Below, one piece after another: positions 15,055 through 63,281 of a stretch of DNA of 64,000 bases (positions are counted from its first letter, which is position 1; each line of letters begins with the position of its first letter). The notes beneath the pieces were generated by a model. The model was not told the origin of the DNA. It searched no databases and was given only the letters and a program-made list of their open reading frames with translations. This DNA is from a phage, in the sequence record NC_101838.1. The stretch is one strand, 5' to 3'. The translations under genes and the position numbers were made by a program.

Positions 15055-15501
15055 TCAGTCCTCGCATTTAACAAATTTTTCTACAGATCCACCAAGCACA
15101 GCTTGTTGTTTAATGGCACTTTCTTCATCATAGTGGATAGATTTATGTTCCGTACCTCCAAACTTACCTGTGTGGAAGGTGTGCACCCAAATCTCTTTAG
15201 GAAGGGATTTATTCTCTTCCTCCACCAACTCCCACATACCCCACAAGTGATCTGCGATATCTCTGATGAAATATCCCTCACCGAGGTTTGTATTCACACT
15301 ATAAGCTGATTCGTGATCTCCGCAAATATAACGGAAGGCAGTGTACTCTTTACCTGGTGTGAAGTGAGTGTCCATTAGTATAGCTGTTAAAGAATAAGGG
15401 TCTCGAAAGCCTAAGAACTTTAGTTTAACAATTTCGACATTTACATCCGCAAGATTATCCATGACGATCTCCTCTGTTCGGTTGGTGAGATAATCATACA
15501 T
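15055..15501 (-). CDS. hypothetical protein (148 aa)
   Basis: ORF track; tight spacing in leftward operon. Confidence 0.45.
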   Translation of the reverse strand: MYDYLTNRTEEIVMDNLADVNVEIVKLKFLGFRDPYSLTAILMDTHFTPGKEYTAFRYICGDHESAYSVNTNLGEGYFIRDIADHLWGMWELVEEENKSLPKEIWVHTFHTGKFGGTEHKSIHYDEESAIKQQAVLGGSVEKFVKCED

Positions 15502-15626
15502 AGATCTGGTGTTGGTGTCAAGTTTAATTTTAAGCGATTCTGGGGAGGTATTTTGTTCAGGAGGGTAATCACACAGGGTAGGGCAATTTATGAAGGCACA
15601 GGCCTCGTTTGAGGCCTTAAAATAGG

Positions 15627-16007
15627 TTATGACGCTTTGACGTAGCGCTCTGACAAAGCTGGGAAGCCAAAAGCAGTACCTATACTACCGTATGCTACCC
15701 ACCATTGAAGTTCATCGTGACACCATTTTCCGATCAGGAAGGTGCTGGGGTAGCGGGTCAGTATTTTGGCATAAGCTTTAGGGTCTGCATCCTCTGGGAT
15801 AATGATACTTGGAACATCTTTGTTATGACCACAGCAGCAGTTTAGAGTTTTCAATCCTGCCGCCCATAGACTCATGATAGGCTTAGCCATGCACTTATCA
15901 AGGCACACACGTTTTTTGCCGTCACGGAGCTTTTTAGGCACATCAACGATAACATTTTGATGCTTGGCACCTTTCACTTTCCAATTATAGGATTTACACT
16001 TGCACAT
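15627..16007 (-). CDS. hypothetical Cys-rich protein (126 aa)
   Basis: GGAGAC SD 9 nt upstream of ATG on minus strand. Confidence 0.45.
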   Translation of the reverse strand: MCKCKSYNWKVKGAKHQNVIVDVPKKLRDGKKRVCLDKCMAKPIMSLWAAGLKTLNCCCGHNKDVPSIIIPEDADPKAYAKILTRYPSTFLIGKWCHDELQWWVAYGSIGTAFGFPALSERYVKAS

Positions 16008-36735: not shown

Positions 36736-39513
36736 ATGAGTATGTGGTCTTTCGATTTTGAGTCATCCGGTTTGCTGGAAGACCCAGATCTTTATTATCA
36801 CTGCGGTCTGTTTAAAGAGCTGAATAAGAACCGTTTTATGCTGTTCCTTCCTCTAAATGACCGCACACACTACTCCGAGGAGGATATAGAAAAGGCTAAG
36901 AACTTCATTCTGGCAAAGAAAACTCTTTATAAAGATTTTGAAGTTCGCATAGCAGATTTTTCGGAGTTGGAAGGTTGGCTTACAGGCAATTCTGACTGGT
37001 CACCAACAGCTTTGAACTGCCATAACTGCTACAGTTATGACTTTATGCTAATGGAAAGATTATCCGGTATTCATTTTGATATGTTCCGTGATCCTAAATG
37101 CATGGGGACTATCAACGACCACCAGGTTAACCTGTTTGATACGTTGGCGATGAGCAGAATCTTGTGGCCTGATCGCCCTTTACCAAAAGGTTGTCCGGAC
37201 TCTGTATTCAACCCGGTTACTAAGAAAATGCAGCCTGTTGGTCCTCACGGCCTTATGGCATGGGGCTACGCCCTTGGTAACCAGAAAGTTCAAATTGATG
37301 ACTGGCGAGATCTTCCGTTGTGGAAGTATGTGGATCGTGTATTCGAGGACGTTATCATCCAGGAGCTGCTCTGGAAAGAGCTGGTAGCGGAATCAAAAGG
37401 TGTATTCTACGGCAAATCTGACATGCAGAACTTTATGTACGATCCAGCCAAAGAGAAGCCGAAAGGGTTCAAGAAAATCACCTGGAAGAACGCATTACGC
37501 CGAGGCATGCTGCAGCACTTCCTGATGGAGCTGCAGGCCCGTCAGGGTGTGTATTTCGACATAGATGGGGCTATTGCTTTACGTGACCGTTGCGATGCGT
37601 GGATGAAAGAGATCGCTGATCGTGTTGAACCTCAACTTCCTTTAAAAGAGTTGTCAATGTCTCAGCGGCCCAAGTTCCCTGAAAAGCCGTTTAACCAAGA
37701 TGGGACAATCTCCAATAATGGTTGGAAATGGTTAAAAGATAAGCTTGGCTATCCTGTAGACATGAGCGCTTTAGAATTCAAAGCCCCGCCTAAGCGAGCA
37801 TTTACCTCCACAGGAGATGTCAGCAAGATGGGGATAAAATGGTGCGAAGAGATGGGCTGCAAAGACCCCGACAAGATGGCTGATTTCTTGAGAGGTTATA
37901 TTAAGGGCACCTCCACACCACAACCTTTACCTAAAGAGCTGATGGATCAGGCAATAAGTGATCTGCAGCAGAAGCGAATGCCTGACTGCAAGATACCTAT
38001 GAAAATCAGCAATCAGGACGACATTAAGCGATACCTGATCAGTGCTGGTTGGCTTCCGACAATGTGGAGAACTAAGGATGTAACTAAGGACAGCAAGAAG
38101 AAAGCTCTACCTGATGCAGATGTTGATGCACGAGTATATGCATACATGGACGAGCTTTTAGAGTCAGAGTATTGTGACCTAATTATCAACTTCTGGAACA
38201 AAACTGATGCTAAGTTTCAGACAACAGTGCACAAGTTCCGAAGCTTTCCTAACTCCGAAAGGATTAAAAAGGAAGTGTTCGGGAAAATACGCAGAAAAGC
38301 CAGGGCACTTATTACTTCTCCGCAACTGAAAGATACGTTTGGACACCTATGTCCGAATCTTGAAAAATTGAACGGAGAGATGGCTAAAGATATCGTCTTG
38401 TGGTTATCATTGCGAAACCGCAGATCGGTCCTTGATCCAATCAAGGAGGATAAGGTTGATACTGGTCTTCTTAATCACCCACGTTTGAAGATTGACCATA
38501 AGCTTCCTGCTAAAAGCTCTGGATTAACAAACACTTCCCGACAGAAACACAGTATTTGTGCAAACATGCCTAAACCATCTCCTAAAGTGGTTATGGGTAA
38601 AGAGATGCGTAGCTTGTGGGGTGTTCCTCCTGGATATTTTGAGATCGGTATTGACGGGTCCAACTTAGAGCAGCTTATCGGGGCTTGGGGTGCCTTTGAG
38701 TTCGACAACGGCTTGTACTATGATGTTGTAAGTAACGGAGACGCACACCAAAACAATGCTGAGGCATATACAAAAGTAGCAGGCAGAGAGGTGTCTCGTA
38801 ACGACGGTAAACCTATCACGTATGGGGTTATGTACGGGGCACAAAAAGATAAAGTTGCAGATATGCTGGATATCTCCCCAGAGTTGGGGCAAAGGGTGAT
38901 CGATGCACTTTGGGATGCCAACCCCGGTCTTAAGGGGCGCAAAGAGGATCTGGAGAAATTCTGGGAAGCAACAGGTAAGAAGTTTATCTACTCTTTTGAT
39001 GGTCATGCTATCTGGACCCGATCTAAACACTCTTTACTTAATGCATACCAACAAAATGGTGGTGCATCGCTGTGTGACTTAGTTGGGATACTCATGCACC
39101 ACCAAATGGTGAAGCGTGGGTGGTACGATGAAGGTGTCCGTCGTATTATCTATTACCATGACGAATATCAGCTTCAAGTGCCTGACACACCGAAGTATAA
39201 GACTGTGTACACCTTCGACACAATTGAAGAACTGGAAGCATTTAAGGCAGAGCAGGAAGCCAAACTTCATGTGTTCGACGGTCATAAGTACAAAAAGGCA
39301 CGCAAGGATGAGGACGGAAACGAAGTGGTTGACAGAGACGGAAACACGGTGTACGATCCTATCCTGAACGATGACGGAAAGCTTGAACTTATCTGGAGCC
39401 CTGTGGGTGAAATGGTGGTGCATTGCTTCTGGCAAGCTTCTAAAATGATGGGAGTCCCGTTCCAGATCACAGGTGAATACTTGTGTGGTCGTAACTGGGG
39501 TGATTGTCACTAA
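36736..39513 (+). CDS. family A DNA polymerase with 3'-5' exonuclease
   Basis: Exo I FDFESSGL; Pol A motif A GIDGSNLEQL, motif B RNDGKPITYGVMYG, motif C YYHDE. Confidence 0.8.
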   Translation: MSMWSFDFESSGLLEDPDLYYHCGLFKELNKNRFMLFLPLNDRTHYSEEDIEKAKNFILAKKTLYKDFEVRIADFSELEGWLTGNSDWSPTALNCHNCYSYDFMLMERLSGIHFDMFRDPKCMGTINDHQVNLFDTLAMSRILWPDRPLPKGCPDSVFNPVTKKMQPVGPHGLMAWGYALGNQKVQIDDWRDLPLWKYVDRVFEDVIIQELLWKELVAESKGVFYGKSDMQNFMYDPAKEKPKGFKKITWKNALRRGMLQHFLMELQARQGVYFDIDGAIALRDRCDAWMKEIADRVEPQLPLKELSMSQRPKFPEKPFNQDGTISNNGWKWLKDKLGYPVDMSALEFKAPPKRAFTSTGDVSKMGIKWCEEMGCKDPDKMADFLRGYIKGTSTPQPLPKELMDQAISDLQQKRMPDCKIPMKISNQDDIKRYLISAGWLPTMWRTKDVTKDSKKKALPDADVDARVYAYMDELLESEYCDLIINFWNKTDAKFQTTVHKFRSFPNSERIKKEVFGKIRRKARALITSPQLKDTFGHLCPNLEKLNGEMAKDIVLWLSLRNRRSVLDPIKEDKVDTGLLNHPRLKIDHKLPAKSSGLTNTSRQKHSICANMPKPSPKVVMGKEMRSLWGVPPGYFEIGIDGSNLEQLIGAWGAFEFDNGLYYDVVSNGDAHQNNAEAYTKVAGREVSRNDGKPITYGVMYGAQKDKVADMLDISPELGQRVIDALWDANPGLKGRKEDLEKFWEATGKKFIYSFDGHAIWTRSKHSLLNAYQQNGGASLCDLVGILMHHQMVKRGWYDEGVRRIIYYHDEYQLQVPDTPKYKTVYTFDTIEELEAFKAEQEAKLHVFDGHKYKKARKDEDGNEVVDRDGNTVYDPILNDDGKLELIWSPVGEMVVHCFWQASKMMGVPFQITGEYLCGRNWGDCH

Positions 39514-39562
39514 TGTAAACTATCAGCACAGGGAGGTGCTGTTGAGCAAAGAGGAGACTTTT

Positions 39563-39847
39563 ATGGTAGTAGAGCCAACAAAAACATTTACATCCATGAC
39601 CATTCCTGTTATTATGCAGGTGGAGTGTGTTCAGGTATCTCAAGTGTGGCCTGGCACCAAAATCCCAACAGGGCCTGATTTCTTTCAGGTTGGGAAAGTG
39701 TACAATGTCTGGAAGGCACCAGATTGTTACCCTTTCATTAAAGATGACCGTGGGATGCTGTGGTATCTTGGAAATGACTTGACACTGCACCTTGGGAATG
39801 CTATTATTGCAGTATTCAGACTTAACAAGAAGGAGACCGATCAATGA
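39563..39847 (+). CDS. small paralog-family protein A
   Basis: ATG after AAGAGGAGAC; motif FFQVGKVYNVW...IKDDRGMLWYL shared with next two genes. Confidence 0.45.
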   Translation: MVVEPTKTFTSMTIPVIMQVECVQVSQVWPGTKIPTGPDFFQVGKVYNVWKAPDCYPFIKDDRGMLWYLGNDLTLHLGNAIIAVFRLNKKETDQ

Positions 39848-40071
39848 CGACTTTGGTTAAAGCTACCTTTGTAGAAGAAAAGATGACAGACCTGTCATTC
39901 TTTAAAGAAGGAAAGACCTACGAGGTTTATTACGATAAAGCTCGTGCAAACAAAATGATTAAAGACGAGGAAGGGGTTGCCTGGTATATCTCTCACCTGG
40001 CAAACGGTGAGTATCATATCTACGGAACCACTTTGCTTGCCAAGTTTGTAGTTGTTGAAGAGGACCTATGA
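39844..40071 (+). CDS. small paralog-family protein B
   Basis: Motif FFKEGKTYEVYY...IKDEEGVAWYI. Confidence 0.5.
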   Translation: MTTLVKATFVEEKMTDLSFFKEGKTYEVYYDKARANKMIKDEEGVAWYISHLANGEYHIYGTTLLAKFVVVEEDL

Positions 40072-40262
40072 AAGTAAAGTATCTTGCTGAAGGTATGAAT
40101 AGGTATTTTACCCTTGGGGAAGAATATTGGCCCTTTACAAACAACGGTGATGTCTACGTGAAAGATAATTTCGGCACGCCGTGGTTTCTGCACTCTAATG
40201 GGCTGGGATACTCCATTTACTGCGGTGCAGTGAACAACACAACTCTTGCAGAGTTCGTTTAG
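40068..40262 (+). CDS. small paralog-family protein C
   Basis: Motif YFTLGEEYWPF...VKDNFGTPWFL. Confidence 0.45.
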   Translation: MKVKYLAEGMNRYFTLGEEYWPFTNNGDVYVKDNFGTPWFLHSNGLGYSIYCGAVNNTTLAEFV

Positions 40263-40272
40263 AGGAGGTAGG

Positions 40273-40644
40273 ATGTTAGTAAAAGGTACCCACACAGTCA
40301 AACAACGTATTGAAGTTGAGATTGATGATTGTGAGCTGAAGCATATTTTACGGTCATGCTCCAACGTTTTGCTCCTTAGTATTCTTCAGGAGCGAGCGGA
40401 GAACGAGTTCTTAAATGCATTGGCAGGCCGTCCCGGTGACTTCTGTGTGCGTAAGCGTGGTGACAACAAGTCATGGTTGTGGGAAATCGATGCCGACTGG
40501 GATTACCACAAAAATGAAGGTATAGATGAGCCTATTCGTGAACTGACTGACAAAGAGATTCAGATGTACAATGAAGTTTGTCATTGGGCAACACGCCAAC
40601 AAATTTACCTAGACCCTGTGTGGCTGATTGAAAATAGCCATTGA
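40273..40644 (+). CDS. hypothetical protein (123 aa)
   Basis: ATG 7 nt after GAGGAGG. Confidence 0.5.
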   Translation: MLVKGTHTVKQRIEVEIDDCELKHILRSCSNVLLLSILQERAENEFLNALAGRPGDFCVRKRGDNKSWLWEIDADWDYHKNEGIDEPIRELTDKEIQMYNEVCHWATRQQIYLDPVWLIENSH

Positions 40645-40720
40645 CAAGAAGTAAGATTAGATATAAGATGCTTCGCACAAACAGAGTGTTGATTTTTAAA
40701 TAACTAAGGAGACTGCTAAG

Positions 40721-40975
40721 ATGAAAATTACTTTGAAGTCAGAATGCGTTGCAAATGACCGAGCTTTTAAAGATTGCACAGTCGGTGCAATTTATGAAGC
40801 AGAGTTTTGTGAGAACCCTCTGGTAAAAGCCCTCCTGGAAGAAGGGGCCCCTTTATCACAAGAAGAGATCGATGAGCTGGAAAACTCAGCACAGTGCCTT
40901 ACCTTTAAAGATGATGAAGGAGACTCTGTATGGTGCACTGTTAATGAAGTAGTTTTTGTAAAACCTGAACATTAA
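40721..40975 (+). CDS. small paralog-family protein D
   Basis: AAGGAGA SD; motif DRAFKDCT...DDEGDSVWCT shared with next gene. Confidence 0.5.
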   Translation: MKITLKSECVANDRAFKDCTVGAIYEAEFCENPLVKALLEEGAPLSQEEIDELENSAQCLTFKDDEGDSVWCTVNEVVFVKPEH

Positions 40976-40977
40976 TA

Positions 40978-41006
40978 CTTGACAACAGTGATGGGGCCTA
41001 ATATAA
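40978..41006 (+). promoter_or_regulatory. sigma70 consensus promoter inside the gene array
   Basis: TTGACA - 17 nt - TATAAT directly after the stop of the upstream gene. Confidence 0.5.
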
Positions 41007-41038
41007 TGGCCCTATCAAAACGAAAGGGGACCACAGCA

Positions 41039-41299
41039 ATGACCAAACAATACCAACGAATTAAAGCCAAGGTTAAGCCAGACTATCTGGAGAAAGACTC
41101 TGCTTTTCGGGACTGCACAGCCGACAAAGTTTACACAGGGACTGTCCTGTTGAACGATAAACTTGAAGTAGATGTGCTGGGTAAAGAGGCCGTTATCGAG
41201 GATGACAACGGTGACTGTGTTTTCTGCACCACACGGGAGCTAGAAGTCTTAGAATACTTCGGTGAAATCTTCAACTCTTTAGACGACGAGGAAGCGTGA
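41039..41299 (+). CDS. small paralog-family protein E
   Basis: ATG after AAAGGGGA; motif DSAFRDCT...DDNGDCVFCT. Confidence 0.45.
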   Translation: MTKQYQRIKAKVKPDYLEKDSAFRDCTADKVYTGTVLLNDKLEVDVLGKEAVIEDDNGDCVFCTTRELEVLEYFGEIFNSLDDEEA

Positions 41300-41688
41300 T
41301 GAAAAATATTTGGGATATTGATATCTTTGAAGCCTCTAAGCTTGACGGTGCTGATGGAGTTATTATGGTGTCTGATGGCAAGGCAACACTAACTTCCGGA
41401 GATATCATCTATGCCTTGGACGAGCTGGCGCTTCTGAAATCTACCGGTAACACTTTAGAGGAGCGTCTTCAAGGCTTCGCCTTCAAAGAAGGTACAAATA
41501 CCGCCATGATGTGCACCACACGGACAGTTCAGGTTGGTAACGGTGTCTATATGATCATTGCGGTGTGTTATAAATTCAGCAACGTCAATAAAGATGATGC
41601 TGACGCTGTCAACGATGTGGTTGTTCTCTTCGTAGGTGACGCTATGGCAGACCTGATGAATGCAGGAGAAGCGGCAAATGAAGACTGA
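41296..41688 (+). CDS. hypothetical protein (130 aa)
   Basis: ORF track; ATGA overlap. Confidence 0.5.
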   Translation: MMKNIWDIDIFEASKLDGADGVIMVSDGKATLTSGDIIYALDELALLKSTGNTLEERLQGFAFKEGTNTAMMCTTRTVQVGNGVYMIIAVCYKFSNVNKDDADAVNDVVVLFVGDAMADLMNAGEAANED

Positions 41689-41980
41689 AAACATTACCCC
41701 AGCAGGGTTCTTAAAAGTATACCGTGAACTGCTATATACTACAGAGGACAGTGTTCTAGAGTATCCAGAATATCTTTTGCTGTATAAGTATCTGCAGGAG
41801 GCTGGTGAAAATCTGCCAGTTAGTGCAGAAGGTGGTCCGAACTGGATATACAGCGCATGGAGAAAGGTTGACATTCTCCCAGATCCAGGTAAAGATATGG
41901 TAGTTTGGCAGCTTATCAACAACATTGGGATTCCAATCTTTGATGAAGCTGTTAAAATCTATTTTGAACTTGACGATTAA
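41678..41980 (+). CDS. hypothetical protein (100 aa)
   Basis: ATG after AGGAGAAG within ORF 41660..41980. Confidence 0.45.
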   Translation: MKTENITPAGFLKVYRELLYTTEDSVLEYPEYLLLYKYLQEAGENLPVSAEGGPNWIYSAWRKVDILPDPGKDMVVWQLINNIGIPIFDEAVKIYFELDD

Positions 41981-41997
41981 TATCAGGAGACCTTAAG

Positions 41998-42243
41998 ATG
42001 ACTGAAGTAGTTGCTCGCGCAGGACAGAAAGTACGTTGTGTTGAAGTAGGTTTTGGTGGCAAAGGGTGTCAAAACTTGACTCAAGGTAAGGAATACGCTG
42101 TTATTTCTGGTGGTGGCGACGAAAGTATTGTGTTCGAGGGCCACATCCTGGATGCTGAAAACTTTGAAATCTTTGACGACGATGGGGATCCAATCACCTG
42201 CCTGCTGGACGGGAATTGGGGAACTTTCGAAGTGATTGGCTAA
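41998..42243 (+). CDS. small paralog-family protein F
   Basis: AGGAGAC SD; Gly-rich beta-like motifs similar to A-E. Confidence 0.5.
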   Translation: MTEVVARAGQKVRCVEVGFGGKGCQNLTQGKEYAVISGGGDESIVFEGHILDAENFEIFDDDGDPITCLLDGNWGTFEVIG

Positions 42244-42326
42244 CAAATACCTATTGTAATTTGCAGAAGGGGATGCTAAAATAGTGTCTCCTTCTATGTT
42301 GTTCAAATAAAATCGGAGATTCCATA

Positions 42327-42692
42327 ATGGAACAAATGAACGATCAAGCGTCGGTTGCGATGAACGAGCAAGAACAACCTCAAGAATTTTTCTTAGGGTT
42401 AAGTAAAGATCAAGTGTCTCTTCTACTAGTGCTTTCTTCTTTCATGGGAAGACTTCAGGAGCTCACACAACAACCAGAGGCTGAACAATTATTTCAAGCT
42501 CTGCGTGAAGAAGAAAAATATCGTCGTTTGGACTATGCCTTAGGTTGGGTAGCTCAACAACGAGATATGCTGATGGCCCTCTCTGGGACCACAAGTTTTG
42601 CAATGGGGCTGTTGGCTCAAGTTCAGGACAAATTAATTCAAGCAGGGTTTGCACACACGGCAAACACTAACGAAGAACAAGGAGACAAATAA
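42327..42692 (+). CDS. hypothetical protein (121 aa)
   Basis: ORF track. Confidence 0.5.
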   Translation: MEQMNDQASVAMNEQEQPQEFFLGLSKDQVSLLLVLSSFMGRLQELTQQPEAEQLFQALREEEKYRRLDYALGWVAQQRDMLMALSGTTSFAMGLLAQVQDKLIQAGFAHTANTNEEQGDK

Positions 42693-43918
42693 TGAGCGTT
42701 ATTCAACAATTCGCTAACCCGATGAATCCGCGTGAAACTGTTTTACTGGCTCACGGCATGATTAAACGTGTCAGCATCAAGCCTATCAAAGGTGCTGATC
42801 CTACAACAGGTATTAAAACCACTGTGTGGCAAGGTAAGAAAATTGAATCCAGCCACACCATCTCTTTACTGATTTCTGAACTGGATTCCTCTGATAACCT
42901 GCTTCAAGGTGGTGAAGAAGTTTGGATCAGCATGGGTGATAAGCTGCTTAAACCTGGTCATCAAGACTCTGTCTCTGTTAAAATTGATGACAAGTGGGAA
43001 ACCGTAACGCCGGGATGGATCGTAAATATCCCTTTGAAGGCAAACGAGCATAACGGTAAGACCTATTACAAAGGCTCACTGGCTAAGATGGTCAAGCTGG
43101 GTGCAGGAGAGGCTCCAGCAGCGACTCAGCAGCAAAAACAGCAACAAGGTGCACAATCACAAGGCCAGAAGCAGAAACCTCAGCAGAATGCCAATCAGGA
43201 CGTTTTACGCATCTATGGCGATGTGACTCAGATTGTTGGCAACGTGGTTACTGTTAATGACCACAAGATTGGCGAAGGTGCTATGGTTGTAACTGATGAG
43301 CAGCTTAAAGACCTGGTGGTAGGTGGTCGTGTTGCAGCCATTGTTGACAAAGACACCGGAAACATTATCAGTGGTTTCAAAGCCTATCCCCCTAAGGCAG
43401 AGAACGGCACTCAAGGCTCCGGTGGCAAGCGTAAATCCTCTTACGACCCTATCGGTGTGGAAACGGGGCATAGCATCAATGCGTTGCAGATCATCCTGGA
43501 TCGCGGGTTTAAGGTAGACGACCCACTGGGCGTGGCTAAAACACTGCACGTAGTCACCATTGAGCTTAAGAAAGAGTATGCTCAAGCCACCAACCGAACT
43601 GAAGATGAAGTAGGTGCCAGTGTCGGTAATGCGGTGTTGAACGCTTGTCGCCGTATTGACAAGAAAACGAAAGTTGATGATTTTGCAGCGGCAATTACTG
43701 CAGAAGCAAAAGATGTCTTGACTAATCTGGCTGAACCGTTGTACGATTGGATCAAGAACGGTGCTGGGTCAACTGACTATCAAGAACCCCAGGCTGCCAA
43801 ACAGGAAGCAGCTCCACAGCAAAACACTGTAGACGCTCCTCCTGTAAATGATGAGGAAGATGACCCAATGGATCAGAATCCAGCACAGTACACCTTTGAT
43901 GATGACATCCCTTTTTAA
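42692..43918 (+). CDS. single-stranded DNA-binding protein-like, with SSB-type acidic C-terminal tip
   Basis: C-terminus ...YTFDDDIPF matches the bacterial SSB tail DDDIPF; Gln/Pro-rich linker precedes it. Confidence 0.55.
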   Translation: MSVIQQFANPMNPRETVLLAHGMIKRVSIKPIKGADPTTGIKTTVWQGKKIESSHTISLLISELDSSDNLLQGGEEVWISMGDKLLKPGHQDSVSVKIDDKWETVTPGWIVNIPLKANEHNGKTYYKGSLAKMVKLGAGEAPAATQQQKQQQGAQSQGQKQKPQQNANQDVLRIYGDVTQIVGNVVTVNDHKIGEGAMVVTDEQLKDLVVGGRVAAIVDKDTGNIISGFKAYPPKAENGTQGSGGKRKSSYDPIGVETGHSINALQIILDRGFKVDDPLGVAKTLHVVTIELKKEYAQATNRTEDEVGASVGNAVLNACRRIDKKTKVDDFAAAITAEAKDVLTNLAEPLYDWIKNGAGSTDYQEPQAAKQEAAPQQNTVDAPPVNDEEDDPMDQNPAQYTFDDDIPF

Positions 43919-44759: not shown

Positions 44760-45185
44760 ATGATCTATGAAATGCCAAAACTGATTCGTGACGATGCCCA
44801 AAACGCTCACACCATTATTATGGGCAAACGCATGGATATTATTTGTCATAAAGATTTCTGGGAAGGAAGTTACTTCACAGAGTATTTTGGTAAACTGGAC
44901 AATGGTCTGCTGATCCAGTTCTACACCGATGCGGAAAACAACATTCCCTGGGAGTTCGAAACTGAAGATGTCCATAAACTTTTCACCTTCCTCGGTATTA
45001 AGGTTAAGGCCAAGTTTGAAGAAGGTGAGTGCGACGATTGTGGATTTTATGAGGTAACAGATTTCTACCTTCCTAGCGGTAAGAACCTTTACTATGAAAG
45101 CCACTTCGGTAACTCCAATATGCCACAGTGCTGGACTGAGTTTTTTGAAATTGCGGAAGAGGAGCTGGCTTACCGTGATTATTGA
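44760..45185 (+). CDS. hypothetical protein (141 aa)
   Basis: ORF track. Confidence 0.5.
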   Translation: MIYEMPKLIRDDAQNAHTIIMGKRMDIICHKDFWEGSYFTEYFGKLDNGLLIQFYTDAENNIPWEFETEDVHKLFTFLGIKVKAKFEEGECDDCGFYEVTDFYLPSGKNLYYESHFGNSNMPQCWTEFFEIAEEELAYRDY

Positions 45186-45633
45186 TACTGTAGAGGGAGA
45201 TTTAATCTCCCTTTTTAAGAGCGGTGCTGGTCACCTGATCCACGGTTGTAACTGCTTCCACACAATGGGCAAGGGTATAGCAAAACAGATTGCCCGTGAG
45301 TTTCCTCAAGCACTGTCAGCCGACAAAGAGACTAGATACGGTTGCCTAAGTAAACTGGGTGCGTTCTCCCGATGGGAGCACTTATCTCCGGTAGGTATTG
45401 TCTACGGAATCAATCTATATACCCAGTTCTACCCAGGACCTAATGCTGAGTATTTCTCAATCCTGAAAGGCTTTGAGCTAGTCAATGAAGTATTCAGCGG
45501 ATCGACTTTACCATTCTACATCCCTAAGATCGGGTGCGGCATAGGCGGTTTGAAGTGGGAACACGTAGAGGACGTTATTAACCTTGCCACTTTCGACATA
45601 GATATTGTCGTGGTGGAGTACAAAAAGTGTTGA
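45175..45633 (+). CDS. macro-domain protein (ADP-ribose binding/processing)
   Basis: Motifs GDLIS...HLIHGCNC...MGKGIA and IGCGIGGL typical of macro domains; GTG start 10 nt after GGAAGAGGAG, overlapping upstream stop. Confidence 0.6.
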   Translation: MIIDTVEGDLISLFKSGAGHLIHGCNCFHTMGKGIAKQIAREFPQALSADKETRYGCLSKLGAFSRWEHLSPVGIVYGINLYTQFYPGPNAEYFSILKGFELVNEVFSGSTLPFYIPKIGCGIGGLKWEHVEDVINLATFDIDIVVVEYKKC

Positions 45634-46079: not shown

Positions 46080-46142
46080 GAGGTTGACATCTGAAAACTG
46101 CAGTGTATAATATACGCATAAACTAACAGAGGGTGATGTATT

Positions 46143-46698: not shown

Positions 46699-46944
46699 AT
46701 GAACAAAGGGTGGACATTTGTAGACGGCGTTAAAAACATGCCTCTAGGAAAGTATATTGTAGCCATGGCAGATGAGAATGGCAAGGTTGATTTCGGAGTT
46801 TGCGAGGTTGTTCTTGCAGGATCTGGTGACTATGCTCACAAAACTGGGATAATTAACGGTCATTTCTACTTTGATTACAACCCTGTTGTGGCGTATATGG
46901 CTATGCCAGAGTTCGAGCTCCCAAAGGAAGGTGCAGATGTTTAA
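46699..46944 (+). CDS. small paralog-family protein G
   Basis: CAGGAGA SD; Gly-rich motif similar to 39.5-42.3 kb family. Confidence 0.45.
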   Translation: MNKGWTFVDGVKNMPLGKYIVAMADENGKVDFGVCEVVLAGSGDYAHKTGIINGHFYFDYNPVVAYMAMPEFELPKEGADV

Positions 46945-50036: not shown

Positions 50037-50064
50037 TTGACAAGCTAACTTAAATCGATATAAT
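50037..50064 (+). promoter_or_regulatory. sigma70 consensus promoter followed by 5' leader hairpin
   Basis: TTGACA - 16 nt - TATAAT; GGGAA-AAC-TTCCC hairpin at 50077-50089. Confidence 0.6.
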
Positions 50065-62963: not shown

Positions 62964-63281
62964 TTAACGTTCTACAAAAATACCGTTCAGTTCAATAACC
63001 AGGAATTTCTGGTCTTCACTGTCGTCTCGTGCCAGCACCTCACAGACGTATCGGTCATCTCCATCATCATCGCAGTCAAATACAAGACTGAGGACTTTAT
63101 CATGATAAACCTTCGCCACTACCGCCTCGTAAGTATTGCCGATTGTGAATCCAAGATAATCTCCGATGCATTTGACAACAACATGGTCGCCAGCATTCAA
63201 GTCAATCTTCGTCATTACTGCGCTCCTTGGGTAATAATACTGTATGTAAAACTTTAACCAGAGATGTGAATAACGCCCCAA
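62964..63281 (-). CDS. hypothetical protein (105 aa)
   Basis: ORF track. Confidence 0.45.
   Translation of the reverse strand: MGRYSHLWLKFYIQYYYPRSAVMTKIDLNAGDHVVVKCIGDYLGFTIGNTYEAVVAKVYHDKVLSLVFDCDDDGDDRYVCEVLARDDSEDQKFLVIELNGIFVER

Follow-up and report, generated by a model that had tools for sequence, protein, structure and literature searches.

The 64,000-nucleotide stretch of record NC_101838.1 analyzed here (the window) belongs to a Vequintavirus, an rV5-like coliphage and myovirus. Directly 3' of its primase/helicase and DNA polymerase genes lies an array of nine small plus-strand genes (p1 to p9), six of which appear to encode divergent forms of a single small protein domain; the array fills positions 39563 to 42243 and is followed by a gene for a protein of 408 amino acids (aa). 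The same neighborhood is found in Murica, pangalan, and MaxBurger, where the array appears as a series of genes annotated "hypothetical protein." Its closest match is Escherichia phage pangalan (99.9% identity over 3 kb), and a comparison of positions 39400 to 42400 with phage records gave 117 matches, 115 of which covered at least 80% of the region at 88 to 100% identity, essentially all of them Vequintavirus. Every gene in the array is preceded by a GGAG-type ribosome-binding site (Shine-Dalgarno sequence), and ATGA overlaps join p1 to p2, p2 to p3, and p6 to p7. The isoelectric points (pI) are 4.1 to 5.1 in p2, p3, p5, p6, p9, and the dispersed protein p11, with p1 near neutral (6.5), and p5, p6, p9, and p11 carry net charges of -10 to -12 on approximately 85 residues.

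A first-pass annotation of this DNA had proposed that at least six adjacent small proteins share two motifs. Both motifs are present, FxxGKxYxV...KDxxGxxW in p1, p2, and p3 and DxAFxDCT...DDxGDxVxCT in p5 and p6, and alignment revealed significant similarity among the members. In Smith-Waterman comparisons with 1,000 residue shuffles, the pairs p5-p6 (z = 11.0), p1-p2 (z = 10.1), and p2-p3 (z = 5.8) had scores that none of the shuffles reached, and no further pair among the ten proteins compared stood out, allowing for 45 comparisons. Searches with phmmer against 1,418 open reading frames (ORFs), comprising all stop-to-stop ORFs of the window and of three related loci, linked p5 to p6 (E = 6e-7) and p1 to p2 (E = 1e-4), and hhalign comparison of orthologue alignments gave probabilities of 93% and 87%, respectively, for the same two pairs. 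The proposed expanded family of small phage proteins is real. At the level of plain sequence comparison, it consists of two groups, p1/p2/p3 and p5/p6, to which p9 and p10 (a protein encoded farther downstream) are not linked.

Profile comparisons draw these groups together. A profile built only from foreign sequences recovered p2 (E = 4e-9), p3 (E = 5e-6), and p1 (E = 6e-6) from the 1,418 ORFs, and its match to p9 was weak but consistent (E = 0.019, fourth of 1,418 ORFs; E = 0.008, fifth of 575). Among the 575 ORFs of pangalan, the two best non-self matches of a hidden Markov model (HMM) of p9 were p5 and p6, and the p5/p6 HMM ranked p9 first. When an enlarged profile without p5/p6 sequences was compared with the p5/p6 profile by hhalign, the two aligned over 43 columns that include both motifs (E = 1.1e-4; probability, 57%); the controls p4, p7, p8, and p10 gave E values of 0.13 to 0.6. 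The p5/p6-free profile also matched the divergent p6 orthologue of the related contig L012 (E = 4e-5) and reached p5 and p6 of the window themselves only at E values of 0.1 to 0.3. Judged from these comparisons, p1, p2, p3, p5, p6, and p9, i.e., six of the nine genes, would form one superfamily, with membership being firm for p1 to p3, well supported for p9, and probable for p5 and p6. The links of p9 and of p5/p6 are statistical and come only from profiles and bridging sequences.

Table 1. Positions of the array genes and of other features of the window mentioned in the text
Feature	Position	Strand	Length	Remarks
Weak signature match	15058-15684	-		HFTPGKEYTAF...
DNA polymerase gene	36736-39513			uninterrupted
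Hairpin CAGCAC-AGGGAG-GTGCTG	39525-39542	+		6-bp stem; between polymerase stop and p1 ribosome-binding site
p1	39563-39847	+	94 aa	p1-p3 group member; N-terminal extension of ~35 aa
p2	39844-40071	+	75 aa	family member; copy modelled; phrog_12623
p3	40068-40262	+	64 aa	family member
p4	40273-40644	+	123 aa	interspersed non-member; phrog_6273
Promoter-like TTGACA-17-TAAGAT	40641-40669	+		10/12; upstream of p5
p5	40721-40975	+	84 aa	p5/p6 group; 20-aa insert; very acidic, pI 4.2
Perfect promoter TTGACA-17-TATAAT	40979-41007	+		12/12; upstream of p6-p9
p6	41039-41299	+	86 aa	p5/p6 group; acidic C-terminal tail
Repeat TGCACCACACGG	41225-41236, 41512-41523	+	12 nt	in p6 and p7
p7	41299-41688	+	129 aa	interspersed; not a demonstrable member
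p8	41678-41980	+	100 aa	DUF7238 protein (Pfam PF23885, E = 3e-7); non-member
p9	41998-42243	+	81 aa	member; 20-aa insert in beta2-beta3 region; pI 4.1; phrog_4927
Terminator-like hairpin	42265-42295	+		after p9; annotated terminator in Murica GenBank record; conserved in relatives
SSB-like gene	42692-43918	+	408 aa	C terminus ...YTFDDDIPF
Macro-domain ORF	45094-45633	+		
Perfect promoter TTGACA-N16-TATAAT	46084-46111	+		
p10	46699-46944			unrelated to family
Perfect promoter TTGACA-N16-TATAAT	50037-50064	+		
p11	62964-63215	-	83 aa	further, dispersed member; pI 4.3; sequence ...NAGDHVVVKCIGDYLGFTIGNTYEAV...FDCDDDGDDRYVC...

The remaining genes of the array, p4, p7, and p8, were tried as family members and showed no significant similarity by hhalign (E = 0.2 to 0.6 for p7). 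The six members lie where the first-pass annotation had placed them, but not as an unbroken run, since these three genes interrupt it. An orthologue of p4 is present in Seunavirus EC152. The seventh member proposed at 46699, p10, carries a look-alike motif yet is unrelated: phmmer found no match, hhalign gave E values of 0.15 to 0.6, and its Smith-Waterman scores did not rise above those of shuffles. A better seventh member is p11, whose gene opens a long series of small minus-strand genes; profiles that exclude p11 match it at E values of 0.02 to 0.13 (0.009 in the pangalan ORF set). Another candidate, pangalan_88, is encoded outside the window, past its end. On the minus strand near 15 kb, a weak match to the signature of the family (E = 0.06 to 0.2) may be a copy of the domain embedded in a larger protein, or chance.

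The shared domain comprises approximately 65 residues, is acidic, and has the signature h-x-x-G-K-x-Y-x-V ... h-x-D-D-x-G-x-x-W/h. Word-indexed single-sequence searches of 5.8 billion proteins with p2 and p6 returned only close Vequintavirus orthologues. When the p1-p3 profile was run exhaustively as an HMM against 1.84 billion representatives, it matched only nine proteins. Three of the nine are informative because they carry the domain in repeats, with four tandem copies in P0047 (346 aa), five in P0048 (571 aa), and two in P0049, which also has a DUF3310 domain. P0048 matched the p1-p3 profile at an E value of 1.7e-4 (1.84e9 proteins) and has the family of p9, phrog_4927, as its best PHROG (E = 2e-18); P0049 matches both phrog_4927 and phrog_12623, the family of p2. 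A search of 5.8e9 proteins seeded with the repeat alignment (the A4 profile) recovered 91 proteins at E values of 1e-14 to 6e-5, approximately 60 of which are proteins of 65 to 142 aa from Enterococcus phages and related contigs, with the domain lying N-terminal to DUF3310 or other tails.

The N-terminal domain of DUF3310 (PF11753) proteins and of related small proteins from phages of Enterococcus and other Firmicutes has significant homology to p1-p3, with which it shares the signature FKEGQTYICT..WWTEGKEYKV..DDDG..W..FKLKEE, and the proteins fall in PHROGs 3523, 3249, 16833, and others, all of "unknown function." The foreign-only profile that recovers p2 at an E value of 4e-9 was made solely from these sequences. 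In these proteins, the domain is usually fused C-terminally (to DUF3310, a coiled coil, or others) or repeated in a chain, whereas in the window proteins it is always free-standing and is multiplied as separate genes. Searches of Pfam, NCBIfam, and PHROGs with the array returned only families of unknown function and no enzyme family, the only domain match being DUF7238 for p8, and the family itself is not covered by Pfam or NCBIfam. The superfamily spans PHROGs 12922, 12623, 12802, 4927, 12544, 11936, 3523, 3249, 16833, and others; at least 10 PHROG families of "unknown function" and the N-terminal module of DUF3310 proteins unite in one domain superfamily. No significant match to the family was found within 9 kb of the polymerase gene in Seunavirus EC152, Certrevirus CR3, or Vibrio phage ICP1, and published work on DUF3310 and on small proteins of Vequintavirus contained nothing on the family of the array.

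Structure prediction was carried out for two proteins, p2 and p6; for p1, p3, p5, p9, and p11, the fold would follow from homology. AlphaFold2, run on the p2 alignment, gave a confident model (predicted local distance difference test score, 90; predicted template modelling [TM] score, 0.77) with six strands at residues 3-10, 25-31, 36-40, 46-48, 56-60, and 64-70 and a 14-residue beta1-beta2 loop that contains one helical turn. The superposition of this model on Gp54 of phage Bas11 (PDB 9AXB), the most similar structure solved so far, was clearly above generic SH3-like matches, and p2 is thus predicted to be an SH3-like, Gp54-like six-stranded small beta-barrel. SH3-like barrels (SH3, Tudor, KOW, FeoA, and the RecD SH3 domain) likewise occur as single domains, as tandem repeats, and in fusions, but p2 has a sixth strand where these have a 3-10 helix, there is no sequence relationship, and no motif by which SH3, Tudor, or KOW domains bind ligands is recognizable. 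Among cellular structures, the RecD SH3 domain (5LD2_D) is the nearest analogue listed for both models, and the authors of the Gp54 study also named it as the closest analogue of Gp54 (PMC11578894). A Foldseek search of BFVD with the p2 model returned dozens of small uncharacterized phage proteins with TM scores of 0.6 to 0.8, mostly from T1-like Drexlerviridae and several per genome, along with proteins from Cronobacter phage CR9, Vequintavirus isim, and phAPEC8 and an Enterococcus DUF3310 protein. On the strength of these predicted structures, the "very rare" fold of Gp54 appears to be common and multicopy in phages.

Gp54 of Bas11 (JohannLBurckhardt) is a nonessential 66-aa protein of unknown native function that binds the antitoxin domain of CapRelSJ46 directly and is an alternative activator of this fused toxin-antitoxin defense; activation follows when Gp54 partly unfolds and clamps the pseudo-zinc-finger domain of the antitoxin (PMC11578894). 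It resembles the array proteins in its size, mild acidity, position within a series of small early genes, and dispensability, and the local signature F-x-x-G-x-x-h-x-h ... G-x-x-W can be read from its sequence. A strict-motif count singles out Gp54 among Bas11 ORFs and has little weight, as the motif was built after Gp54 had been seen. At the sequence level, Bas11 also encodes three to five weak family members: bas11_0061 (E = 4e-4), 0079, 0048, and 0071. Gp54 and the array proteins differ in that Gp54 comes from another phage family (Drexlerviridae), belongs to another PHROG (phrog_7421), and is only 16% identical in the structural alignment. Homologues of Gp54 with only three residue differences do not activate CapRelSJ46 (PMC11578894), and, with activation being so specific, trigger activity is not transferable to p1-p3. 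The authors of that study suggest that Gp54 might inhibit another defense system (PMC11578894).

Transcription of the array can be approached through its promoters. The first-pass annotation had noted a perfect consensus promoter inside the array; the promoter is real and conserved and lies in the 63-nucleotide gap between p5 and p6, although its position had been given one base off. This sigma-70 sequence starts 4 nucleotides past the p5 stop codon and ends 32 nucleotides before the p6 ATG. The window contains three perfect consensus sites, all on the plus strand, versus 0.05 expected by chance. Among eight Vequintavirus sequences, whose flanking genes diverge at up to 15% of positions, the hexamers and the 17-base spacing of the p5-p6 promoter are invariant in all eight, and four spacer positions vary. 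At the promoter-like site upstream of p5, TTGACA is kept in seven of the eight sequences (L008 has a TTGACAG-like sequence) and TAAGAT in all of them. The likely transcription units, as far as they can be read from the sequence, are polymerase-p1-p4, then p5, and then p6-p9.

The other two perfect sites have a spacing of 16 and lie downstream of the array, and many promoter-like sites with 10 to 11 of 12 matches, nearly all on the plus strand, occur between 36 and 50 kb. Some annotations, such as those of bas54_0082 and magaca_169, place the beginning of p6 farther upstream, at an ATG overlapping the -10 hexamer (41005-41039). This codon would be absent from the transcript if the promoter is used, and the ATG at 41039, with the ribosome-binding site AAAGGGGA, is the more plausible start. 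The small hairpin upstream of p1 is kept in relatives by a compensatory change (CAACAC...GTGTTG), and its folding energy is not unusual (z = -0.63).

In comparisons with four relatives, the ratio of non-synonymous to synonymous substitution rates (dN/dS) was 0 to 0.26 for every array gene. The product of p1 is as constrained as the polymerase, with 30 synonymous and no non-synonymous differences to the relatives L005/L006 (dS = 0.8). The array genes are real and under purifying rather than diversifying selection, contrary to the earlier suggestion of a diversifying family. Nor did copy number vary within the genus: gene content is constant across the 115 Vequintavirus records. L012, a more distant 136.8-kb contig with 42 to 97% protein identity across the array, differs, having five p1-p3-type copies (90, 67, 64, 71, and 67 aa) versus three in the window. 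The L012 array also has an inserted Ead/Ea22-like gene and two further small genes. The genes p6 and p7 share an identical 12-nucleotide sequence, TGCACCACACGG, encoding CTTR. In the metagenomic variant P0039 (131 aa), p6 and p7 are fused at precisely this sequence, which amounts to a 287-bp microhomology deletion.

Experimental information on the array genes comes from the HIDEN-SEQ preprint, which reports saturating transposon sequencing of Bas54 (10.1101/2025.11.20.689424). Bas54 is phage MaxBurger, 95.7% identical to the window across the array, and its genes bas54_0077 to bas54_0085 correspond to p1-p9 gene for gene. From p1 to p9, insertions disrupted 14/14, 15/16, 14/14, 19/20, 11/11, 15/17, 12/17, 22/24, and 7/8 TA sites, or 71 to 100% (10.1101/2025.11.20.689424, Extended Data Table 8). 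Eight of the nine genes (bas54_0077 to bas54_0082, bas54_0084, and bas54_0085) were classed as nonessential and bas54_0083 (p7) as "reduced fitness," and the polymerase, primase/helicase, and downstream 408-aa genes were essential in the same screen (10.1101/2025.11.20.689424). The p1 gene is under strong constraint, yet its Bas54 orthologue takes insertions at every one of its TA sites.

We propose that the paralogs are early-expressed, non-enzymatic, stand-alone binding modules for host or defense proteins with an accessory role, a reading to which we give a probability of about 0.5; within it, the family and the fold are much better supported than the target. Tandem repeats and fusion to other domains are typical of binding modules. 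The proposal follows from the lack of catalytic motifs and of any enzyme family match, the use of the domain in repeats and fusions, and the action of Gp54 by protein-protein binding. Under this proposal, the six genes would be old, diverged duplicates of one domain, with at least one further copy elsewhere in the genome. To judge from the sequence, host RNA polymerase would read the array from its consensus sigma-70 promoters together with the replication genes, and p1, p2, and p3 would be translationally coupled. Each paralog may then dock on a different host or host defense protein early in infection, in an accessory role (host takeover or counter-defense) that would be singly dispensable in laboratory hosts but maintained by natural selection outside them. 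Phenotypes would be hidden by redundancy or by the narrow range of hosts used so far. Such proteins would also be potential targets of bacterial immune sensors, as is their structural homologue Gp54.

Several observations weigh against a role of the paralogs as modules that bind host or defense proteins. No member has a known binding partner or phenotype. The link to Gp54 comes from one predicted model, that of p2; the p6 model does not retrieve 9AXB. Sequence comparison points to no homology with Gp54, as hhalign with the A5 profile gave an E value of 0.14 and PDB profile searches missed 9AXB. The strong purifying selection and the constant copy number across the genus are unlike an arms race. 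In the competition of Bas54 on clinical isolates, none of the nine array genes was depleted (log2 fold change, -0.44 to +0.85; q ≥ 0.9) in a single table that does not separate the results for strains CFE303 and CFE311; MoxR and bas54_0140 were depleted in that table, which the text attributes to CFE311 (10.1101/2025.11.20.689424). Finally, the recurrence of the domain within replication modules fits an alternative role equally well.

This main alternative, which we consider possible although on balance unlikely, is that the proteins are adaptors of the replisome or of DNA metabolism that bind phage or host helicase, primase, single-stranded DNA-binding protein (SSB), polymerase, or RecBCD-type enzymes and so tune replication or recombination. 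The array lies between the primase/helicase and polymerase genes and an essential SSB-like gene whose product ends in DDDIPF, and five unrelated lineages place the domain among DnaB, primase, SSB, polymerase, or Sak genes. P0048 is encoded between DnaB and a Toprim primase and near RecA, P0047 near a Prim-Pol, P0056 between SSB and a protein-primed PolB, and an Enterococcus member after Sak and a replication initiator; weak Bas11 members flank a helicase gene. The structural likeness of both models to the RecD SH3 domain and the acidic C-terminal tail of p6 would also suit such adaptors. Against this stands the finding that the members are singly nonessential in the very screen in which the polymerase, primase/helicase, and SSB-like genes are essential. 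Moreover, replication genes and unrelated accessory genes commonly stand side by side in the early regions of phages, so that position alone is weak evidence.

That p5, p6, p9, and p11 are acidic DNA mimics in the manner of Ocr, Arn, and Ugi, blocking host DNA-binding defense enzymes, is possible but unsupported, and we regard it as improbable. Their net charge is in keeping with this idea, as is the fact that the proteins are small, expressed early, and nonessential, and the authors of the Gp54 study drew the analogy with Ocr (T7 gp0.3), which inhibits one defense system and is sensed by another (PMC11578894). With Ocr, the array proteins share a functional analogy only (small, acidic, early, and nonessential); its fold is unrelated. 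In addition, p1, p2, and p3 are only mildly acidic or near neutral, and a monomeric barrel of 65 residues is small for a DNA mimic.

We can effectively exclude that there is no family at all and that the motifs arose by chance as beta-hairpin signatures of small ORFs without kinship. Pairwise identities are indeed low (25 to 36%), p9 and p5/p6 tie to p1-p3 only at E values of 1e-2 to 1e-4, and p10 had a look-alike motif but proved unrelated. However, shuffle z scores of 6 to 11, the recovery of p2, p3, and p1 by the foreign-only profile (E = 4e-9 to 6e-6), the reciprocal top non-self ranking of p9 and p5/p6 among 575 ORFs, the hhalign E values of 0.13 to 0.6 for the negative controls p4, p7, p8, and p10, and coding-type purifying selection in all genes speak against chance, which is already contradicted for p1-p3 and for p5-p6. 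A role as minor virion or structural proteins is still less credible and effectively excluded, because its only support is the label "putative minor capsid protein" on a 78-aa BFVD neighbor from Vequintavirus isim, other neighbor labels ("tailspike sialidase" and "DNA methylase," each on 70 aa) are clearly annotation errors, and the genes are nonessential and lie in an early region with sigma-70 promoters, among replication genes.

Returning to the binding modules, we speculate, while considering it doubtful, that the window family, Gp54, and their structural neighbors in Drexlerviridae, Vequintavirinae, and Firmicute phages could be one very widespread superfamily of "adaptor barrels" that natively clamp and neutralize small domains of the sensor or antitoxin type in bacterial immunity proteins. 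The arrays would then be panels of inhibitors, and CapRel-type sensors would have evolved to exploit their mode of binding. If this were true, rV5-like phages would hold six or more uncharacterized anti-defense proteins, each a potential immune trigger. Vequintaviruses serve in phage therapy and in biocontrol against E. coli O157; the majority of their early genes are still dark matter. For the array, a defined set of six or seven redundant candidate genes results.

Some further observations concern the records and genes around the array. Sixteen GenBank records labeled "Campylobacter phage" match the array region, with Campylobacter jejuni named as the host in 15; seven of them, in our table of near-identical records, are 98.4 to 99.1% identical to this region, and others are 95.5 to 96.2% identical. 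These records are probably mislabeled or derived from contaminating coliphages. An inserted gene for an HNH homing endonuclease interrupts the DNA polymerase gene of some relatives, as in L012 (1243-4863; contig AATLQU010000010.1, GCA_012894635.1; HNH protein of 168 aa) and L005 (2407-5512), with the C-terminal 118 aa called as a separate ORF. The 408-aa protein has the C-terminal tip motif known from SSB of E. coli. HIDEN-SEQ found its orthologue bas54_0087 to be essential, with hits at 8 of 57 TA sites, and in one relative the protein is annotated as a putative single-stranded DNA-binding protein; it is probably a phage SSB that uses the host SSB-tip interaction code. Farther downstream in the same early block, an ORF matches a gene annotated as a Macro-domain (ADP-ribose-binding) protein in Murica and rV5_ev168 and is a candidate counter-defense enzyme.

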